DNA of 64,000 nt. It comes from Mobula hypostoma. Lineage: Eukaryota. A program made the position numbers and the translations under genes. Every line of letters begins with the position of its first letter. Within the stretch, counting starts at the first letter, position 1. The notes under the pieces were generated by a model. That model searched no databases and had not been told where the DNA came from. It saw only the letters and a list, made by a program, of their open reading frames with translations. Of the stretch, positions 4,781-50,349 are shown one piece after another. The stretch covers positions 47,122,001-47,186,000 of the forward strand of contig NC_086097.1 of assembly GCF_963921235.1 (NCBI RefSeq), read 5' to 3'.

Positions 4781-4937
4781 TTGGAAGTCAGTGATTCAAG
4801 CTCCAGCAGTAATCTTTCATTAGCAAAGATCAGGCCAAGCAGTGACCTCAACAATAGCACTGGACAATCCCCCTCCCATCATAAGGTCCAAAGAAGTATT
4901 TCTGCCAATCAGAAACAAAGACGGTACAGTGATCATG
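4781..4937 (+). CDS. MARK3: MARK3 internal exon (spacer region, 157 nt)
   Basis: Acceptor ctcttag|, donor |gtgagt. Encodes [52 protein letters not shown], which resembles the vertebrate MARK3 spacer. Ends in phase 1. Confidence 0.95.
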
Positions 4938-5209
4938 GTGAGTGTTCTGAACCATCCCGAAATGTTGGAAAAATTTATTTTCTTTCATTTTCTGAATGAA
5001 ACAGCTCCTGCCTGTTTCTGACTGTAGCAACAGAATGTATATTGCATCCTGAGCCTAAAATTCCATGTACTTGGTGTTTGAAATGTTTCTAAAGTCTGTT
5101 TTAATATACTTTTAAGTGACAGACTTGATGGATTTATAGATTTAAAAATGAAATGACAATTACGGATTTTGAAAAACTTAACCAGAAAATCTTTTTATTT
5201 TATTTGAAG

Positions 5210-5424
5210 CTGGACCCTCTATTCCACCAGTGGTATCCTATGCAAAAAGAAGTCAGACCAGCACAACAGACAGTGACTTGAAGGAGGAAGTTCAGTCAAG
5301 GAAGTCAAGTACCACTGCTGTCGGAGGAAGAGGAATTATTCCTTCCAGCCCGAAATTGGGAAATGCTAGCAATCCTAATAAAGCAGAGATTCCTGATCGT
5401 AAAAAGAATTCTGCTGTTACTAGT
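5210..5424 (+). CDS. MARK3: MARK3 internal exon (215 nt)
   Basis: tttgaag| ... |gtaagc. In phase with the previous exon: (A)[26 protein letters not shown]...[22 protein letters not shown]. Confidence 0.95.
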
Positions 5425-5616
5425 GTAAGCATAACAGATGCTAATTCTAAATATAACATGAACATTTTGCGAGATTTGTATTATTTTATGAAATTGATGG
5501 AATGTTTATTTAGTTTAAAGAACTCAAAGCCCAGACATGTTACAAATAAATGTTTGAAGTGTGATAAATAAGATAATCGTTTGGGTGTTTTTGGATGACA
5601 CATAATTGTTGACTTT

Positions 5617-5788
5617 GCAACACACACCAAAGTTGCTGGTGAACGCAGCAGGCCAGGCAGCATCTGTAGGAAGAGGTGCAGTCGACGTTTCAGGCCGAGA
5701 CCCTTCCTACAGATGCTGCCTGGCCTGCTGCGTTCACCAGCAACTTTGATGTGTGTTGCTTGAATTTCCAGCATCTGCAGAATTCCTG
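5617..5788. repeat. Palindromic Penelope-like terminal insertion
   Basis: 57-bp inverted arms 5617-5673 and 5703-5759 (1 mismatch), flanked by direct repeat TTGTTGACTTTGCA at 5606-5619 and 5789-5802. Confidence 0.8.
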
Positions 5789-6381
5789 TTGTTGACTTTG
5801 CATCTGTTTTTCCATATTGTACCTTCATATCTTTATATATTTGAGAGGACACACTGATTTTTGGTTTAATGACTTGTGTAAAGATAGGATGTCTAAGTTA
5901 CAGCACCCTCTCAGTACTGCATTGGAGTTCCTGCAAAAATGTTTCTGAAGCATGGTTTGAGCCTACAATCCTTTGACTCAGTCCACTGAGGCAAAGCCAG
6001 ATTATTCTTGTATGTTACTTGATTACAAGAGAAAATATTTTTAATAAGATGTTGCTCAACAGTGGAGTAATAGCACCCATTGCAGAGGGCTATGTTCCAA
6101 AATTCAAGCTTAACTAATTACTGCTCAAATGTTTTTGTGAAGCAGGCTTGCAGGTTTTGGCCTGGGATGCGGAATGAAGTTCTGCAGAGAATGTTTTGGT
6201 TCCTGCATATGGTCTTTCATGTGCATTTTACTTGCGTGTTTAGTATTGCTCTTCTAGAGATCAACATTTCACACTGTACGCATTCTACCTGAAGCTACAA
6301 GAAGCTATTATATTATAGAATGAACATAGAAACAATTCTAGTGCAGATGGAAAGGAATCATGCCTATCTTTCTGTTACCAG

Positions 6382-6485
6382 AATAATACAGTGTCTGGAG
6401 GAATGACCCGACGGAATACATATGTCTGCAGTGAAAGAACCAACATAGATAGGCATTCTGTATTACAGAATGGTAAAGAGAACAG
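6382..6485 (+). CDS. MARK3: MARK3 internal exon (104 nt)
   Basis: ttaccag| ... |gtgagt. Encodes [34 protein letters not shown](S). Not in the ORF track. Confidence 0.95.
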
Positions 6486-7982: not shown

Positions 7983-8243
7983 TACTGCTCCAGGGCAAAG
8001 AACTCCTGTGACTTCCACTCACAGTATCAGCAGCGCAACCACTCCTGACAGAATCCGTTTCCCTCGGGGAACTGCAAGTCGTAGCACTTTCCATGGTGGT
8101 CAGCTCAGAGAGCGACGAAATGCAACCTACAATGGACCACCTGCATCTCCTACACTGTCTCATGATGCCACTCCTTTGTCGCAGACACGGAGTAGAGGCT
8201 CTACAAACCTCTTTAGTAAATTGACCTCAAAACTCACAAGAAG
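7983..8243 (+). CDS. MARK3: MARK3 internal exon (261 nt) carrying the conserved aPKC site RSTFH
   Basis: tcttatag| ... |gtagga. Encodes [39 protein letters not shown]...[17 protein letters not shown](R). Confidence 0.96.
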
Positions 8244-13681: not shown

Positions 13682-13708
13682 AAACATGTCTTTCAGGTTT
13701 TCCAAAAG
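13682..13708 (+). CDS. MARK3: MARK3 27-nt microexon (R)NMSFRFSK(R)
   Basis: Long T tract then tttag|AAACATGTCTTTCAGGTTTTCCAAAAG|gtagga, phase 2/2. Matches the human MARK3 NMSFRFIKR cassette as recalled. Confidence 0.9.
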
Positions 13709-31722: not shown

Positions 31723-31896
31723 TAGGTCCTCTTTGGTCTGTTGAAGTTAGATTAACAGTTATTCCTATTTACTTTTAAATTGCTTCAGTTATAGATGAAG
31801 AAATTGGATCATCAGCACATATGGTGTGCTGATTCTGTCAGACTGATTAATCTACATGTACAGTTTAATTTCTCACAACATTTTTCCTCTTCTCAG

Positions 31897-31976
31897 GGTC
31901 AGTACTGACCCATCAAAACAGCAGACTCCCAACAAATCAGTGCCCACAAATACTTCACAAAGATCAAAGACTGTTA
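31897..31976 (+). CDS. MARK3: 80-nt frameshifting cassette exon, MARK4S-exon-like: (R)VSTDPSKQQTPNKSVPTNTSQRSKTV
   Basis: Acceptor tttttcctcttctcag|, perfect donor |gtaagt, open in the incoming phase-2 frame, in non-repetitive sequence. Length and peptide resemble the MARK4S-specific exon (VTLDPSKRQNSNRCVSGASLPQGSKI, from memory). Confidence 0.82.
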
Positions 31977-33291
31977 GTAAGTCTTCAGTCTCTAAATCTT
32001 TTCTCCGCTTCTGAACAAATTTTCTTGAACACATGCAAATCCTGTATTATGTGTAGAATTCCTCTTCTCTATCAGGTTTGAGTTCAGAAATACTTTCCCC
32101 ACAGTCTATTGAATGCAGTAGTTGAAGATGAATACATTTCAACCTGGATCATTGTTTTGAATGGTACTTAAAAAGTAAATATTAGGTTTTGATATTTCAG
32201 AGTTAAATACCCTATCTAAAATCCAATTTAAGGAAAATAGTTCATATGATTGTTAAATATTGCAAAACATGGGTTTTGTGTAGTTAGTCACTCTTACTTT
32301 CAATATGTTATTTATTTACCCCATTTTACTTTAAGATTATTTGATTGATTGTGAAAGCTGATCAAAAAGGCAGGATGCTCGAGAGAACACACTGAAATAT
32401 AATTTCAGTACCATTGAGTAATTTTTTTGCATAAGATTTCATTGATAAGGATATATTTCAGGAAGTAATGAATTTTAAATGTTATTTTAGGGAGACCCAT
32501 GCTTGTTTATTGATACGAATACCTTTCTGTGGCAAAATAATGCATGTAATGTGCACGTAGTAGGTGCAATGTCTGCTTTTGTTTTCCTTGCAATGCATTG
32601 CAAAGTTGATGTGCTTGTTTCAGTATGGTGTAGAAAATCAATTAGTTGAGATTGTCAACATAAATAAATTGCAGCGTTGTTTGTACGACAATTAGCTGTT
32701 GTGAACTTGAATGTAAGACCTTCATTTATGTAAATTTTTTCAGCTTTCTTTTCAGATTTCCTTCTTTTCATTTAAGGATATTTAGGAATTATTTTAGAAT
32801 TAGTAAATAAAGACAACATACTGAAATTGATAAATTAGATGTGTTTTGCCTCAAGTTGTGTTGGCAGCGAGATTGAAATGTTAAATTACACATCACATTT
32901 ATGAAGTGAAATTTACAGATTTTTACCAAATGCCTGTCATGTGCTTTTTTTTGGAAAATGCTAATAATTGTTTGACTGAAGGAAACAACATTTTTAGCTG
33001 AACTTGTAACTAAAGATTACTTGTAATTACTGGTTACACAAATAATCACTTAAGAATAATGTTTAGTTTGCTGAAGTACAACTTCTTATTTTTAAAATTT
33101 GGGTAAAAATTGAGAACATAATTTCAACTCATAAATTTTGTGTCATTGTTCAAATCCATTGTACACATTTGCTTCATCCCATACCTGGCCAATTGCAAAT
33201 CTCATTTCTATAAAGACTTGCATTTGTGCTCCATCTTTGCATCTATAGGAAAGGTTTTACTTTACAGATGGTAAAACTGCTGGAGCAGTAA

Positions 33292-33454
33292 CAGACACAA
33301 AATGCTGGAGGGGCCCAGCAGAGCTGATGAAGGGTCTTGGCCTGAAACGTTGACTGTACTCTTTTCCATAGATGCTGCCTGGCCTGCTGAGTTCCTCCAC
33401 CATTTTGTGTAGGTTGCTTGGATTCCCAGCATCTGCAGATTTCTCGTTTATGAT
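33292..33454 (+). repeat. Penelope-like terminal fragment with a hammerhead-like core
   Basis: CTGATGA-AGGGTCTTGGCCT-GAAAC-GTT-GACTG at 33324-33356; short inverted arm; imperfect flanking repeat tggagcag(cag)taa. Confidence 0.65.
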
Positions 33455-34720
33455 TGGAGCAGCAGTAATTCCTCTTGTCAGAAAAAGACAGTTTCTCTTT
33501 CATTCTGTAAACACATAGAATTCTTGTGAAACAGACTTCGAACTATGCAGTTTTGTTATGTGTTGTTAATTTCAGAGAAAAAAAAGTTACGAAGGTCTGT
33601 ATTATTAGACAAATCCCAGGGAAGACAGCAAAATACTCTTTAATCTAGCATAGATGCCTGTAAATATTATATACTGTAGGTATCCAGTTAAATTTGAATT
33701 AATTTTACTAAGATAGTGGTTTGCTTAGATTACAATTTTGTTAGGCTCTATCTCTAGTCTAATAAATCAAAAATTTCAATATTGGAACATCAAGCTTGCA
33801 TTAACCTTTTTCATTGTTATGGCAAATCAGGTTTAAGGGTGCTTCAGTTGGAAATTTAAAACTATCCTAAGAGGTCTTTTACGATTTCAAGTTTCTAACA
33901 TACGTGTTACGCCGGGAGCTTATAAAAATAATATTGGGTTCATTAAAAATATTGCTTAGTTTTTGGTTTAGAATCTGTAACCACTGAAATCCAAACGCCA
34001 AAATAATTTAACAGTTGAATTTGGTGCGAGCATGTTGTGATCTGTTTGCATCTGTGCTCATATGTTGTACTTGGAGGAGATGATGGAGATACAACCAGAA
34101 AGAAAGCAGGAAATATAAAATATTTTGTTAAATGCTCTATCTTGAAATTCTAGAAAAACAATTTACAACCTAATATATATTAATTTGTTCATTTTTCAAC
34201 TTTAATAATCCAGCTAGATTTGCTGTTTCAGATTGATCTTCTCCAGCATTTCATTCCTGCTTACCTTAAGCAAATTAGTTATCTTAGATTGTTTACTTTT
34301 TTTGTACTACTGCTTATATGTTTCAGAGACTGTAGAAATGTTATAATATTTATAATGCCTCAGTTATGAATTGTGCAATAAGATAGATTTCTACTGCCCT
34401 ATTAGACCATTATTCTGTTAAAATAAAGTCCTGAGAATGCTGGAAATGCCAAATAAAACAAAATGCTGGAAATACTTTTTTTAAATATACAAGCACCTGC
34501 ACAGAGGAATCTAGTTAACAACTCAAGTCAATGATTTTAACTTCTCATCAGCTGACCTGAAATGTCTAAACTTTTGATTACTTCAGTTGATTTAAATTAA
34601 AGAATTCCTTATGTACCTAAATACACATAAGAAGTAACATTTATGTTGATCTAAAGACGTTACAACCTTTGTCATCTTCAGTTCTGTTCAGAATCTCTCT
34701 CATTATCCCCTTCATTACAC

Positions 34721-37176
34721 AGTTCAAATTAAATTTATTATCAAGGTACATATATGTCACCATATACAACCCTGAGATTTATTTTCCTGTGGGCACGTTT
34801 AGCAAAAGTATAGACTAGAAACCATAACAGAATCAATGAAAGATCAACCAGAATGCAGAAGACAACTGAAAATATCAATAAATTGCAATAAATAACGAGA
34901 ACATATAAACAGTCCTTAAAGTGAGATAATTGGTTGTGGGAACATTTCAATGATGGAGCAAGTGAGTGTAGTTATCTCTTTTTATTCAAGAGTCTGATGG
35001 TTGAGGGGTAGAAACTGTTCTTGAACCTGGTGGTGCATGACAAGACTGTTGTACCTTCTCCCTGATGGCAGCAGTAAGAAGAGAGCATGTCCTGGGTGGT
35101 GGTGATCTGTGATGATGGATGCTGCTTTCCTGTGACAGCATTTCATGTGTGATGTCTATAAAAGGTATTCACCTCCTTGAAAGTTTTCATGCTTTACTGT
35201 TTTACAACACTGAATCACAGTGGATTTAACTTGGCTTTTTTGATGTTAATCAACAGAAAAAGACCCTCTTACGTCAAAGTAAAAAATGATCTCTACAATG
35301 TGATCTAAATTAATTATAAATATAAAACACACAATAATTGATTGCATAAGTATTCACCCCCTTCAAGTCAGTATTTAGTAGATGCACCTTTGGCAGTAAT
35401 TACAGCCTTGGGTCTGTGTGGATAGGTCTCTATCAGCTTTGCACATCGGAATACTGCAATCTTTCCCCATTCTTCTTTACAAAACTGCACAAGCTCTTTC
35501 AGATTGCATGGGGATTGTAAGTGAACAGCCCTTTTCAAGTGCAACAACAAATTCTCAATTGGATTGAGGTCTGGGCCACTCGGGACATTAACGTTGTTGT
35601 TTTTAAGCCATTACTATGTAGTTTTGGCTTTATGCTTGGGGTCATTGTCTTGCTGGAAAACAAATCTCCCAAGTCGCAATTCCCTTGCAGACTGCATTAA
35701 ATTTTCCTCACTGATTTACTTGTATTTTCCTGCATTCATTTTACCCTCTACCTTCACAAGCTTTCCAGGGCCTGCTGTAGTGAAGCATCCCCACAGCATG
35801 ATGCAGCCACCACCATGCTTCACGGTAGAGGTGTGTGTTTTTGATGATGTGTGGTGTTTGGTTTGATGGCCAAAAAGCTCAGTTTTGATGTTATTAGACC
35901 ATAGAACCTTCTTCCAGCTGACTTCAGAGTTTCCCATATGCCTTTTGACAAACTCTAGCTGGGATTTCGTATGACTATTTTTCAACAGTAGCTTTCTCTT
36001 TGCCTCACTCCCATAACGCTGCAACTGGTGAAGTACCCGGCCAACAGTTGTTGTATGTGCTGTCTCTCCCATCTCAGCCACTGAAGCTTGTAACTCCTCC
36101 AGAGCTGTTATGGGTCTCTGGAGGCTTCCCTATCTAGTCCTCTTCTTGCACGGTCACTCAGTTTTTGAGGACGCTCTGCTCTAGGCAGATTTACAGCTGT
36201 GCCATATTCTTTCCATTTCTTGATGATTGACTTAACTGTACTCCAAGGGATATTCAGTGACTGGGATATTTTCTTGTATCCATCCCCTGACTTGTGCTTT
36301 TCAATAACCTTTTCGCAGAGTTGTTTGGAGTGTTCTTTTGTCTTCATGGTGTAGTTTTTTGCCAGGATACTGACTTACCAGCAGATAGACCTTCCAGATA
36401 CAGGTGTATTTTTCCTAAAATCAATTGAAACACCTTGACTGCACACGTGATCTCCATTTAACTAATTATGTGACTTCTAAAACCAATTGGCTGCACCATT
36501 AATGATTTGTGTCATATTAAAGGGAGTGGGTGAATACTTATGCAATCAATTATTTTGTTTTTTATTTCTAATTAATTTAGATCACTTTGCAGAGATCTGT
36601 TTTCACTTTGACATGAAAAAGTCTTTTCCTGTTGATCAGTGTCAAAAAAGCCAAATTAAATCCATTGTAATTCAATGTTGTAAAACAATAAAACATGAAA
36701 ACTTCCAAGGGGGTGTAAATACTTTTATAGACACTGTAGATGTGCTCATGTGCTGTAGAGGATGAATCCACTACCTTTTATACAATTTGCTGCTCAAAGG
36801 CATTGGTGTTTCCATTCCAGGCTGTGATGCAGCCAGTCAATGCACTTTCCATTACCCATCTATTGAAGTTTGTCAAAGTTGTGGATGTCTTCCCAAATCT
36901 CGGCAGACTCCTGAGGAAGTAGAGGTGCTGCTGTACTTTTTGTTGAAATTGCACTTGGTTCCAGGACCGACCCTCTGAACTAGTAACACTCAGGAATTTA
37001 AAACTACTAACTCCCTCCACTTCTGATCCTGCAATGAGAATCACCTTGTGGATCTCTGGTTTCCCTCTCCTGAAGTCTATAATCAATTCTTTGGTCTTGC
37101 TGACATTGAGTGTGAGGTTGTTATTGTAGCACCACTCAGCCAAATTTTGCATCATCACCACCTTTGATTTGTCCCA
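34721..37176 (-). mobile_element. Rex-type LINE split by a Tc1 insertion
   Basis: [27 protein letters not shown]...ESALTGCITAW; host sequence is continuous across 35150-36736. Confidence 0.82.
35150..36736 (-). mobile_element. Tc1-like DNA transposon, near full length, inactivated
   Basis: TIRs of about 200 bp, right end ...ATAGACACTG|TA. Transposase remnants MKTKEHSKQLCEKVIEKHKSGDGYKKIS and TVKHGGGCIMLWGCF. Confidence 0.92.
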
Positions 37177-38371
37177 CACAAAGAAAATTTATTTTCCATA
37201 ATGCACATTTTTCCTACTGCTGTTGTCAGTCCATCAGATCGTGAAACCATCATTCATTTCCTTGACTCTACCAGACCCGTATTTTAATGCTGCACTTGCT
37301 GACCTCCCAGCCTCCAACAAAATCGAGCATTTAAAATCTTGCTGTTTGTGTCATATTTCACAGTAAGTCATCACACATTTTTGCTAACATGTTACTTTCC
37401 AATTTTGTAGTGTTTCCTTTAAAGTAATTAACTGTTGGGTGTCTGTTTATTGCTTGGCTCCATCTACCATCTGCCTAATCCCAGAATTGTCTAGGCTTGA
37501 ACTCTGGGAACATGCATTTTTCCTTGCACCCTTCTCTCAACCCATTGACAAAATTTCATGAAGTACAGCAGCAGGAATGCAGAAAAATTCAATTTGACAC
37601 TTCAAATCAAATATTATTTGGATGATCATACAAATCAACTCCACCTTTTTAGAACTAAACCTCAATCCCTGATTTTCTATGTACTCAGAATACACCAATC
37701 TCTGCCTTTAAAAGTTTACATGTTTCAATCTACTAGGAAGAACCTGGTCTACCAAAAATCTACAACCTGTACCTGCACATTAACATTCTATGATTCATAT
37801 AAAGTAGTCCTACCTCTGTGAACTAATATTTTGTAGTTTCTCACTTTTTAAAAAAATCTTTTCTGTTACACTGTACCAATAAACTACATAAATTAAATTT
37901 TCTTTATATAATATTTCCTTAGTCAACTATTACTAACTCATAAGCTGTCTAAAGAGATTGCCAAGACCAAAAATCTTAATTCTAAAAGGAAGATGCTAAA
38001 ACAGAAGGTACTAGAAATTCCTTGTAAGTTAGGCAGTAGCTGTGGAGAGAGAAGTAGAAGTTAAGTTTCAGGTTGATGATTATTGGAAATTGGGGAAAAC
38101 TGAATAAACAGGAATGGATTAAGTTGCAGAGAAAATGGAAGGATGGGAAGAACAATGTACATCATGGAGTGGAGACCAAGAAATCAATGGATGACTTGAT
38201 AGAGGGTGATGAAGCCACGTTATTATTTCCTAGCATTTGCCTTTATTCAAAGTTACCAGCAACTGCTGTTTTCTATATCTTTCAGTTCTATTGTGGTGTT
38301 CTTTTTCCTCTTCTGTTTACAATTTCTCCAAGAAATTGGTTGTATTTAACAAAACTTGCCCATTCATTCAT

Positions 38372-38475
38372 TCTCTCTCTCTCTCTCTCCTCTCTCTCCT
38401 CTCTCTCTCTCTCTTCCTCTCCTCTCCCCTCCGCTCTGCTCCTCGCCCCCCTCCCCCCTCCCCTCTCCCCTCCCC
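38372..38475. repeat. (CT)n / C-rich low-complexity tract
   Basis: Pyrimidine run read directly; lies among decayed Penelope-like termini (~37985-39435). Confidence 0.85.
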
Positions 38476-39750
38476 AAGTAAGTCATCCATTGTCCCTTGG
38501 TCTCCAGCCTGTCACAGAAATTCCCTTTTCATCTCATCCTCTCCTTTCTCTGCAACTTAAAACATGGCCATCTTCCAACATTCCAAGTTTTGATCGATAG
38601 TCATTGAACTCCAGTGTTAAATCTTTATTTCTGCACAGATGCTGTGTATGACCCATATTTTTCTAGCATTCTGTATTTCAGTATGCCTTTACAGCCTCTC
38701 TGGTCATCTCACAGCTTCCTTTTCCACCAGCTTTAGGCTCATGGTATGAAGAGTAGAGGAGGTATGAGACAGGAAAGTAGGTGATAGGGGTACTGAGAGG
38801 GGTGCAGAATGATAGACAGATGGAGCGAGGTGGGGAGAGGAGAATGGAGTTGGGAGGTAAGCAGGTGGTTGACAGGTGGAAGCAGATGGGATTGGGGAGG
38901 GAGGCAGACGCATACAGGTGGGGGAAGGGGAAGGAGAAGAAGATGATGGGAAATTCAAGGTAAATTAATTTATTATTCTCACATGTATCAATATACCGTG
39001 AAAACATTTTGTTTTGCATTTCAGTACACTGAGATAGGACAAAGTAAAAATAATGGGGAAAAAGGTGCAACAGTTAGAGGGAAAATGCAATGCAAGCAGA
39101 CAATAAGGAGCAAGACCTTGGTGAGATAAAGATTGTGAGGTCAAGAGTCCATCTGGATATATTAGGGACTATTCGGTTGTCCGGGTTAAAAGGCCGCAAG
39201 AGCAGCTGATAATAGGAACCATTAGTGGAGAGGTGAAAGGCAGATGGAGCCAATTGCAAGGTAGAATACAGAACATAGAGGAAGCTGGAATTTGAGTTCC
39301 TCCACCAGGTTGCATTTTTCTTTTGCTCCAGTTTTCAGCATTTGCAGTCTCTTTGGCTCTTTGTTTCTATTTTGCCTGATACGGTCAGACCTGCTGAGAG
39401 TTTCCAGCATTTTCTGCTTTTATTTCAGATTTCCAACAACTATAATTTTTTTGATTTTCATTTTCTTTCTAGTTTTGTGATATCATAGAAATGTTTGCAA
39501 TAAGCACTTAATTGATTTTCTCTGCATCTGTCAGAAACAAACAGTTTTGCTACTAAAATATAGTTTTGAAAAGTTTCATATTCCAGTGTGATTAAGTAGA
39601 TTTGTCTTGGTCATATGAAAGTGTATATTTTTCTGTCTGCATTCCATATGCGCTTCCTTGGTGTAGTCTTCGTGTGCAATAGACTTAAGTTACACAGTTT
39701 TAAGAATTCTCTTCTTCTTTTACTCGTGCTTTCGGATTGCTCTCATTGAG

Positions 39751-39795
39751 GGTCCCAACTGAACCTGAGAGAAACGGGAGATTTGAGGGCTCAAG
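39751..39795 (+). CDS. MARK3: MARK3 45-nt cassette exon (R)VPTEPERNGRFEGS(S); alternative frame (R)SQLNLRETGDLRAQ
   Basis: Pyrimidine tract, cattgag| ... |gtgaga. Resembles human MARK3 LPTEYERNGRYEGSS. Confidence 0.9.
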
Positions 39796-40237
39796 GTGAG
39801 AAGACTATATATATATCTAGCAAATTTACCACAGTGCAACAAAAAGTTGCCATTCAAAATGCATGTGCCTCAATTCATTGATAAACCTTTTAGAAATTAT
39901 TGGTATCTTTTATCAAATTGTTGAAATGTTGACTGATTTGTAAAGCATGGAAAGTTGAAATATGAATTAGAAACAAGGCTTTGACTTTAAAATTCTAAAT
40001 AGCACTGAAATCCAATGTATTAATTAAATCTAATTAAATAAGGAAATTCAATTGAATAAAAATTGCTTCTATCCAGTTGTTCAAAGGATCCTACATTGTA
40101 GTAATTTCTGGGTAGAAAGACCCATTGGCCAAGTCAATGCATAAAAAGAAATGTGCAGTTGTTAAAATGGTGTTGTTCTTATTGTAGTTGTAGCTCTAGT
40201 AGTAGTGGCAAGATGGCATAGGTGTAAAGCAAGCAGT

Positions 40238-43346: not shown

Positions 43347-43411
<65 letters not shown>

Positions 43412-43627
43412 TCACTCTCTCACTCTCTCACTCTCTCACTCTCTCACTCTCTCACTCTCTCACTCTCTCTCTCTCTCACTCTCTCACTCTCTCACTCTCT
43501 CACTCTCTCACTCTCTCACTCTCTCACTCTCTCACTCTCTCACTCTCTCACTCTCTCACTCTCTCACTCTCTCACTCTCTCACTCTCTCACTCTCTCACT
43601 CTCTCACTCTCTCACTCTCTCACTCTC

Positions 43628-43685
<58 letters not shown>

Positions 43686-43735
43686 ACTCTCACTCTCTCT
43701 CACTCTCTCTCTCTCACTCTCACTCTCTCTCTCTC
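43347..43735. repeat. Compound microsatellite (CT)n-(CACTCTCT)n-(CT)n
   Basis: Read directly. Confidence 0.97.
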
Positions 43736-45829: not shown

Positions 45830-46175
45830 TCGTAATGTATCTGGGGATCAAAAAGATGAAATCAAAGAAGCAAAACCTCGTTCACTTAGGTTTACCTGGA
45901 GTATGAAAACGACCAGTTCCATGGATCCCAGTGACATGATGAGGGAGATCAGAAAGGTTCTTGATGCAAATAATTGTGATTATGAACAGCGTGAACGGTT
46001 CTTGCTCTTCTGTGTTCACGGCGATGGACATGCAGAAAATCTTGTCCAGTGGGAGATGGAGGTTTGCAAGCTGCCGAGACTGTCACTTAATGGAGTTCGA
46101 TTTAAGCGAATATCAGGAACATCCATAGCTTTCAAAAACATTGCTTCCAAAATTGCCAATGAATTAAGGCTGTAA
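45830..46175 (+). CDS. MARK3: MARK3 terminal coding exon, KA1 domain
   Basis: ttctgcag| then [114 protein letters not shown]. The VHGDGHAEN motif is MARK3-type. Confidence 0.97.
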
Positions 46176-49094: not shown

Positions 49095-50349
49095 CAATTG
49101 CATGAAAAAGTTTGTGAACCCTTTGCAATACATGGTTTTCTGTATTAATTACTCATAAAATGTCTGATCTTCATCAGTAATAGACAAAGACAATCTGCCT
49201 AAACTAATAACACAAACAATTGTACTTTTTCCTCATCAATTCTGAGTATACAATTTAAATAATCATAGTCTAGGTTCAAAAAAGTAAGTGAACTTCTGGG
49301 CTAATAACTTCTGCAAAAGTTATTTGAAGTCAGGTGTTCCAATCAATGAATGCTGAAGGAGGAGATAAAGAATCCAAGGGTAACAGCAAAAGACCCACAG
49401 AAGTCTCCAGAACTTGCTAAATTCTCTGTTCATGTGTCCATTATAAGAAAAACACTGAACAAGAAAGATGTTCATGGAAGGACATCACGGAGGAAACCAC
49501 TGCTGTCCAAAAACAAAACATTGCTGTAAGTCTCAAGTTTGCAAAAGACTACCGGGATGTTCCACAATGCTTCTGGGACAATATTCTGTGGACAGATGAG
49601 TTGAACTTTTTGGTAGAATTGCACACCACAATGCTTGGAGGAAAAAGAGCAAACTAACACCAAAACCTCATCCCAACTGTGAAGCATGGTGGAAGGAGTG
49701 TCATGGTTTGGTGCTGCTTTGCTGCCTCAGGGCCTGGACAGCTTGCAATCATTGAGGGAACAATGAATTCAAAATTGCTATCAAGACATTTTACAGGAGA
49801 TTGTCAGAGGAGTGCTCTGTCACCCGAAGCTTAATAGAAGTTGGATAGTGCAACAGGACAACGATCTGAAATACAGGATTAAATCAGTAAACAGAAAATT
49901 TAAAAAGAAGAAAATTCATGTTTTCAAATGGTCGTCAGAGTCCAGACTTTAACCGAATTAAGATGCTGTGGCATGGCCTGAAGCAGGCTGTTCATGCAAG
50001 GTATCCCAGAAATATTGATGAACTGAAACAGTTTTGTATGAAGGAATGGTCTAAAACTCCTCCCTGCTATTATGCAAGTCTGATCAGCAGCCACAGGAAA
50101 CATTTGTTGGGAGGTTTTCGCTGCTGAAAGAACAAGTGTTCACAAACCTTTTCCAGCCTGGACTGTGAATGTTTAAACAATGTGTTCAATAAAGACATGA
50201 GAAGTGCAATTGTTTGTGTGTTATTGGTTTAGGCAGATTGTGTTTGTATATTATTGTGACTTAGATAAAGATCAGACCACATTTTATGAGAAATTAAATA
50301 TAGAAAATCAGATAACTGCAAAGGGTTCACAAACTTTTTCTTGCAACTG
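49095..50349 (+). mobile_element. Tc1-like transposon, internally deleted
   Basis: TA|CAATTGCATGAAAAAGTTTGTGAACCC ... GGGTTCACAAACTTTTTCTTGCAACTG|TA; TVKHGG and QSPDFNRIKMLW remnants. Confidence 0.9.

Follow-up and report, generated by a model that had tools for sequence, protein, structure and literature searches.

The closest described system to the locus analysed here is the switch between the short and long forms of MARK4 (MARK4S and MARK4L), which operates through exon 16 of the gene (PMC9355243, PMC10390814) and in which PTBP1 has been implicated (PMC10835012). MARK4 is also listed as brain-specific (bioRxiv 10.64898/2026.02.24.707805), and for the KA1 domain membrane binding, CLASP binding and autoinhibition have been described (PMC6890249). 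As far as the available portions of these sources extend, neuronal bias and control by PTBP1 are known only for human MARK4. Recently, Tress et al. (bioRxiv 10.64898/2026.05.28.727796, May 2026) reported dual-coding regions of MARK1, MARK3 and MARK4 that are preserved across chordates, with dN/dS below 1 in two frames and a brain-specific isoform for MARK4; the consulted parts of that preprint contain no MARK3 exon coordinates, selection test naming MARK3, motif or lineage decay. RBFOX control of a human MARK3 exon 16, which may or may not correspond to one of the ray exons, is treated in PMC11874969, and the sections consulted of PMC13247117 do not name the MARK genes. In the literature covered, with subscription journals outside it, we found no paper on a short form of fish MARK3, on the junction motif described below or on its decay in rays. 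Dual coding is already known at the level of the family, to which the motif and a possible lineage-specific decay make a modest addition.

We analysed a stretch of 64,000 nucleotides (hereafter the window) from the 3.48-Gb genome of Mobula hypostoma. The plus strand of the window carries the 3' half of a gene for a MARK kinase (Table 1). Judged by its sequence, the host gene is a ray-type cartilaginous-fish MARK3, because the 261-nt spacer exon encodes the very protein sequence of ray MARK3a (100% identity; of 4283 candidates in the search 4067 passed, and the best 120 of these were inspected) and because the translations of four window exons occur without mismatch in MARK3a from three stingray and manta species (P0010-P0012). 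The best protein matches of the window exons were MARK3 and not other MARKs. The C-terminus encoded in frame A corresponds to the KA1 domain (structure matches 1ul7 and 3ose, E<1e-59), and the matching database MARK3 proteins also possess kinase and UBA domains, the exons of which fall 5' of the window. A preliminary description of the window had placed a 45-nt exon that is open in two frames in this gene and had alluded to an 80-nt exon; the coordinates and both translations of the former were reproduced exactly, and the latter was located with intact splice sites.

Table 1. Features of the MARK3 gene and their positions in the window
Feature	Position	Strand	Basis or remark
Three upstream MARK3 spacer exons	~4823-4954, ~5206-5424, ~6382-6483 (span 4823..6483)	+	Limits from tblastn
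Constitutive MARK3 spacer exon, 261 nt, ending in phase 2	7983..8243	+	Identity to ray MARK3a
In-frame cassette exon, 27 nt	13682..13708	+	In some annotated isoforms, absent from others
Frame-switch cassette exon, 80 nt, homolog of MARK4 exon 16	31897..31976	+	Splice sites; 83-nt homolog in MARK4 of the same genome
Dual-coding exon, 45 nt, skippable	39751..39795	+	Read in frame A if the cassette is skipped, in frame B if it is included
Last exon, dual-coded start	45830..45906	+	Frame B gives 25 residues, then TGA at 45904-45906
Last coding exon, frame A, KA1 domain	45830..46175	+	Stop TAA at 46173-46175

The 27-nt, 80-nt, 45-nt and last exons have AG/GT ends throughout. The 80-nt cassette is preceded by a pyrimidine tract and AG and followed by GTAAGT, and the 45-nt exon is flanked by AG and GTGAGA. 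Within the 45-nt exon, frame A starts at 39752 and frame B at 39753, and neither contains a stop. With the cassette included, frame B stays open from the 80-nt exon to its stop in the last exon, thereby removing KA1 and producing a tail of 67 residues, 13 of them basic and three acidic; the dual-coded stretch extends 25 codons beyond the 45-nt exon into the last exon. All four paralogous 45-nt exons in this genome have a GAG acceptor (39748-39750 in the window). GAG is the rarest NAG acceptor type and may keep the 45-nt exon skippable. A second GT at 31981, 4 nt past the cassette donor, would give an in-frame 84-nt form. At these tandem donors (31969-31986), the first 10 intron bases are the same in MARK3 and in MARK4 with its 83-nt exon, and use of the downstream donor, giving an in-frame exon that retains KA1, constitutes a third isoform class in several database models. 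Cassette and KA1 occur together in 7 of the 120 MARK3 matches listed, not all of them via the downstream donor.

The last intron holds a 389-bp tandem array of CTCACTCT (49 copies, 43347-43735), pyrimidine-rich on the transcribed strand. A high-copy element at 35170-36715, whose inverted ends of 160 nt are separated by about 1.2 kb, is probably a DNA transposon, and similar transposase-like readings were noticed near 50000 and 61750.

Very probably, the 45-nt exon belongs to an ancient splicing switch common to MARK3 and MARK4, by which KA1 is exchanged for the frame-B tail. Skipping of the cassette would leave the downstream exons in frame A and yield a long kinase with KA1, whereas its inclusion would put the 45-nt exon, together with the beginning of the last exon, in frame B and replace KA1 with the 67-residue basic and mostly disordered tail. 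Stop codons in the last exon spare a message from nonsense-mediated decay, and since the frame-B stop lies there, decay of the short message is not expected and it would presumably escape. By analogy to MARK4S, the short form might be biased toward neurons. The cassette may be included in Mobula hypostoma itself. Like the MARK4S/L system in the consulted parts of its descriptions, the window gene has a non-triplet cassette two exons before the end, the inclusion of which shifts the last two exons and drops KA1. The cassette, the 45-nt exon and the tail motif are homologous between the two, and the preliminary claim that frame B agrees with MARK4S at 11 of 14 positions was borne out against each of the retrieved sequences (swallow P0339, anole P0340, bird P0344, lungfish P0142 and the ray MARK4 P0134). 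The window gene differs from MARK4 in being MARK3, in its extra 27-nt cassette, in a tail that is four residues longer and more basic, and in a better-kept frame A of the 45-nt exon. RefSeq short isoforms of MARK3a from cartilaginous and bony fish (for example XP_042193834.1, XP_051866365.1 and XP_032882983.1), which are predicted models, have the same exon chain and tail.

An open second frame does not by itself demonstrate coding. When frame A was recoded synonymously 200000 times, frame B was open every time, so its openness is no evidence for coding in frame B, and the absence of frame-B stops, which had been proposed as a test, is uninformative because the frame-A residues cannot yield one. 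All four paralogs of the genome have frame B open, the two without the cassette among them. The frame-B stop is built from KA1 codons (Trp-Ser-Met-Lys) that are invariant, which forces its position as well. These two constraints are what could make the likeness of frame B to MARK4 a by-product of conservation in frame A, the caveat attached to the preliminary description. That explanation is refuted, however, as MARK3 and MARK4 are more alike in frame B (11/14 residues) than in frame A (7/14), as only 1 of 200000 recodings of frame A reached 11/14 identity to MARK4 in frame B, and as the codon-position pattern is inverted.

The genome of Mobula hypostoma contains four MARK genes, three of which sit on contigs other than that of the window. 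The 45-nt exon is present in all four and the cassette in two, namely the window MARK3 and a copy (C40) with an 83-nt cassette of the same frame class, whose tail is that of the MARK4-like protein P0134; the homology of the window cassette to the MARK4 exon was found with an HMM at E=7e-9. From the likeness of its KA1 to 3ose, another copy (C22) appears to be MARK1-like, and the last (C82) we take, by elimination, to be MARK2-like. No cassette was found in the MARK1- and MARK2-like copies by an ungapped scan, an HMM search over 1857 open stretches or a whole-genome protein search; one candidate at E=0.21 was discarded, as it lay downstream and without splice context. The MARK1-like copy also has no conserved frame B, although the consulted parts of the 2026 preprint include MARK1, a discrepancy for which another event, or a loss on the lineage of this ray, might account.

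When the 45-nt exon of MARK3 is compared with that of MARK4, the two agree at 10/14, 10/14 and 13/14 of the frame-A first, second and third codon positions, respectively, whereas the other five paralog pairs agree at 4-7/14 third positions and share only 1-2/14 frame-B residues. In the single-frame control exons of MARK3 and MARK4, 57/173 third positions agree (Fisher P=1.3e-5 against 13/14). The pattern continues into the last exon, with agreement at 8/9 third positions and 5/9 first positions over its first 26 nt. This four-paralog comparison alone is free of bias from the selection of sequences by the frame-B profile. All four paralogs, including the two in which frame B is not conserved, share the frame-A residues Glu4, Glu6 and Arg10, a sign of weaker constraint on frame A that does not depend on frame B. 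Alignments of the flanking introns of the two exons between MARK3 and MARK4 scored no higher than shuffled sequence, except over the first 10 nt at the cassette donor.

Across species, a profile of the frame-B tail matched 315 of 1512 candidates, and all 120 listed carry the core motif E-x-x-D-L-R-[AS]-Q-V-A-[MI]-Y-L-G-I-[KR]-[KR], which spans the junction of the 45-nt exon with the last exon. These 120 are MARK3 and MARK4 isoforms from chimaera, sharks, skate, electric ray, coelacanth, lungfish (MARK4), sturgeon, gar, bowfin and many teleosts; annotated frame-B isoforms range from chimaera to teleosts for MARK3 and up to birds for MARK4, and frame-B ends were present in 10 of the 120 MARK3 matches listed. 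Most of the database isoforms are predicted gene models, and the ones that the profile matched were selected for frame-B conservation. A homolog search with the 55-residue open frame of the cassette returned 0 of 8 candidates. A loss of the switch from tetrapod MARK3 was considered, since none was seen among the 120 listed of the 315 matches or was recognisable among 39 representatives (among them P0346, an unrelated repeat protein, which was excluded), and was rejected because 195 matches were not inspected and the preprint includes human MARK3. In some MARK3a models of platyfish and mosquitofish (P0166-P0172), the frame-B peptide of the 45-nt exon occurs twice in tandem, either by exon duplication or as an annotation artefact. 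In teleost MARK4 (for example P0250, P0303 and P0202), frame B hardly varies and the frame-A tail and KA1 have strongly diverged, which would fit a gene whose main product is now the short form.

The codon-position test used exon DNA inferred from pairs of frame-A and frame-B peptides, which agreed with real DNA in the one row where this could be checked; one row pairs two eel species, and one first-position site was unresolved in all rows. By parsimony over 14 rows on a fixed tree, changes in the 45-nt exon at frame-A positions 1, 2 and 3 numbered 20, 9 and 6, compared with 44, 32 and 116 in single-frame exons (P=2e-6). Such a distribution is the one expected if frame B is the coding frame, and the suppression of synonymous change in frame A that had been suggested as a check was found relative to the single-frame controls. 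In a nine-row MARK3 tree, frame-A third positions had two changes at 14 sites against 19 at 16 distal last-exon sites (P=3e-4), the distal sites lying in the dual-coded part of the last exon. The frame-B wobble sites, with five changes at 13 sites, also fell below the same 19/16 (P=0.013), which implies that frame A or splicing constrains the 45-nt exon as well. Both frames are constrained, B more than A, and splicing signals may add to the frame-A part; the long-standing selection in both frames proposed earlier is supported by these patterns. Radical frame-A changes that are silent in frame B recur, as with Gly to Trp in coelacanth, electric ray and shark MARK4. Seventeen hand-picked MARK3 tails pointed in the same direction throughout, with column counts that were unusable because the pattern had fixed several columns.

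A different source of constraint would be conservation at the nucleotide level, for example by splicing enhancers in a short exon with a weak acceptor, the frame-B peptide being irrelevant beyond the removal of KA1. The 45-nt exon is indeed identical at 41/41 resolved positions in chimaera, sharks, skate, sawfish and the window, it is alternatively skipped with its GAG acceptor, and TGCATG lies at 39860-39865, 65 nt downstream, a position typical of RBFOX enhancers, even though this hexamer is not enriched in the window (43 observed against 49 expected). Nucleotide constraint does not, however, predict that changes cluster at frame-B wobble positions (20/35, P=0.003), that conservation runs nine frame-B codons into the constitutive last exon and then falls, or that the peptide of the cassette is conserved; moreover, the MARK1- and MARK2-like paralogs retain the exon and the GAG acceptor without conservation of third positions. 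We regard this explanation as improbable and largely refuted.

Selection on frame B would protect a short motif at the junction of the 45-nt exon with the last exon, consisting of one predicted helix and then a basic patch. AlphaFold2 models of ten tails have one helix at residues 40-48 (pLDDT about 80), followed by basic residues, the rest being of low confidence; the mean pLDDT is 61. The helix has a modest hydrophobic moment, about 0.25-0.3 on the scale used. The tail had no match in Pfam at E<=10, its best hit among solved structures was TRAPPC3 at E=1.4, which we take as chance, and its best score in the ESM Atlas, 0.80, was below the mark of that search. A resemblance to LisH was dismissed, as no Pfam LisH match was obtained and the tail has one short helix instead of a two-helix motif. 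The most likely reading, with odds a little better than even, is that the junction motif serves as a docking or targeting motif for a neuronal kinase without KA1.

Despite the ancestral character of the switch, the frame-B isoform of MARK3 might be in the course of being lost in the lineage of this ray, to which we give slightly less than an even chance. Frame B in the window would then be a relic, kept by frame A, by splicing signals and by the short time elapsed, with MARK4 retaining the short form; such decay is compatible with the ancient switch in other species. Over 65 codons, the frame-B tail accumulated 10, 10 and 9 changes on this lineage against 0, 1 and 0 in sawfish, electric ray and skate (P=0.002, 0.012 and 0.004), whose tails differ from one another by only 1-2 of 65, and on the same branch the frame-A protein had 6 changes in 755. 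Three changes fell on otherwise fixed sites: cassette position 3 (I/L in 51/51 distinct peptides elsewhere), the Gly before K-T (51/51 elsewhere) and the Ala of V-A-M-Y (55/56 elsewhere). The three stingray and manta species closest to the window had the cassette in 0/14 of the MARK3a isoforms seen and in 5/12 of their MARK4 isoforms, while sawfish, electric ray and two skates had it in 10/31 isoforms seen. Against decay, the 80-nt length, both splice sites and the open frame are all intact in the window, the 45-nt exon itself has not changed in this lineage, and the little skate also had the cassette in 0/5 of the isoforms seen. The test was post hoc, with one genome on the branch and no synonymous rate for the cassette, and adaptive change is compatible with the same counts. 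Twenty-two sequencing runs, none recorded as RNA and all without tissue labels, were considered for an RNA check of 31800-39950; the contigs of four runs were dominated by repeats, no cassette-to-exon joint occurred among the joints listed (279 more existed), and two runs had low depth in the cassette bin, but intronic bins were similar.

In summary, the short/long switch described for MARK4 is not a property of MARK4 only but predates the split of MARK3 and MARK4, as indicated by fish genomes and an independent codon-position test. Within the short tail, selection is narrowed down to some 17 residues that straddle a single exon junction, and these offer mutagenesis a defined target in a family of kinases with a link to tau phosphorylation. 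A fuller proposal, which we consider rather unlikely, is that an uncharacterised short helical docking motif, encoded in the second frame on both sides of an exon junction and kept for more than 400 million years in two paralogs, retargets MARKs without KA1 in neurons, and that stingrays and mantas, losing it from MARK3 and keeping it in MARK4, are a natural knockout and a dated case of the decay of a dual-coding frame after duplication. If true, the decay in rays would be a rare dated example of the loss of a second frame.
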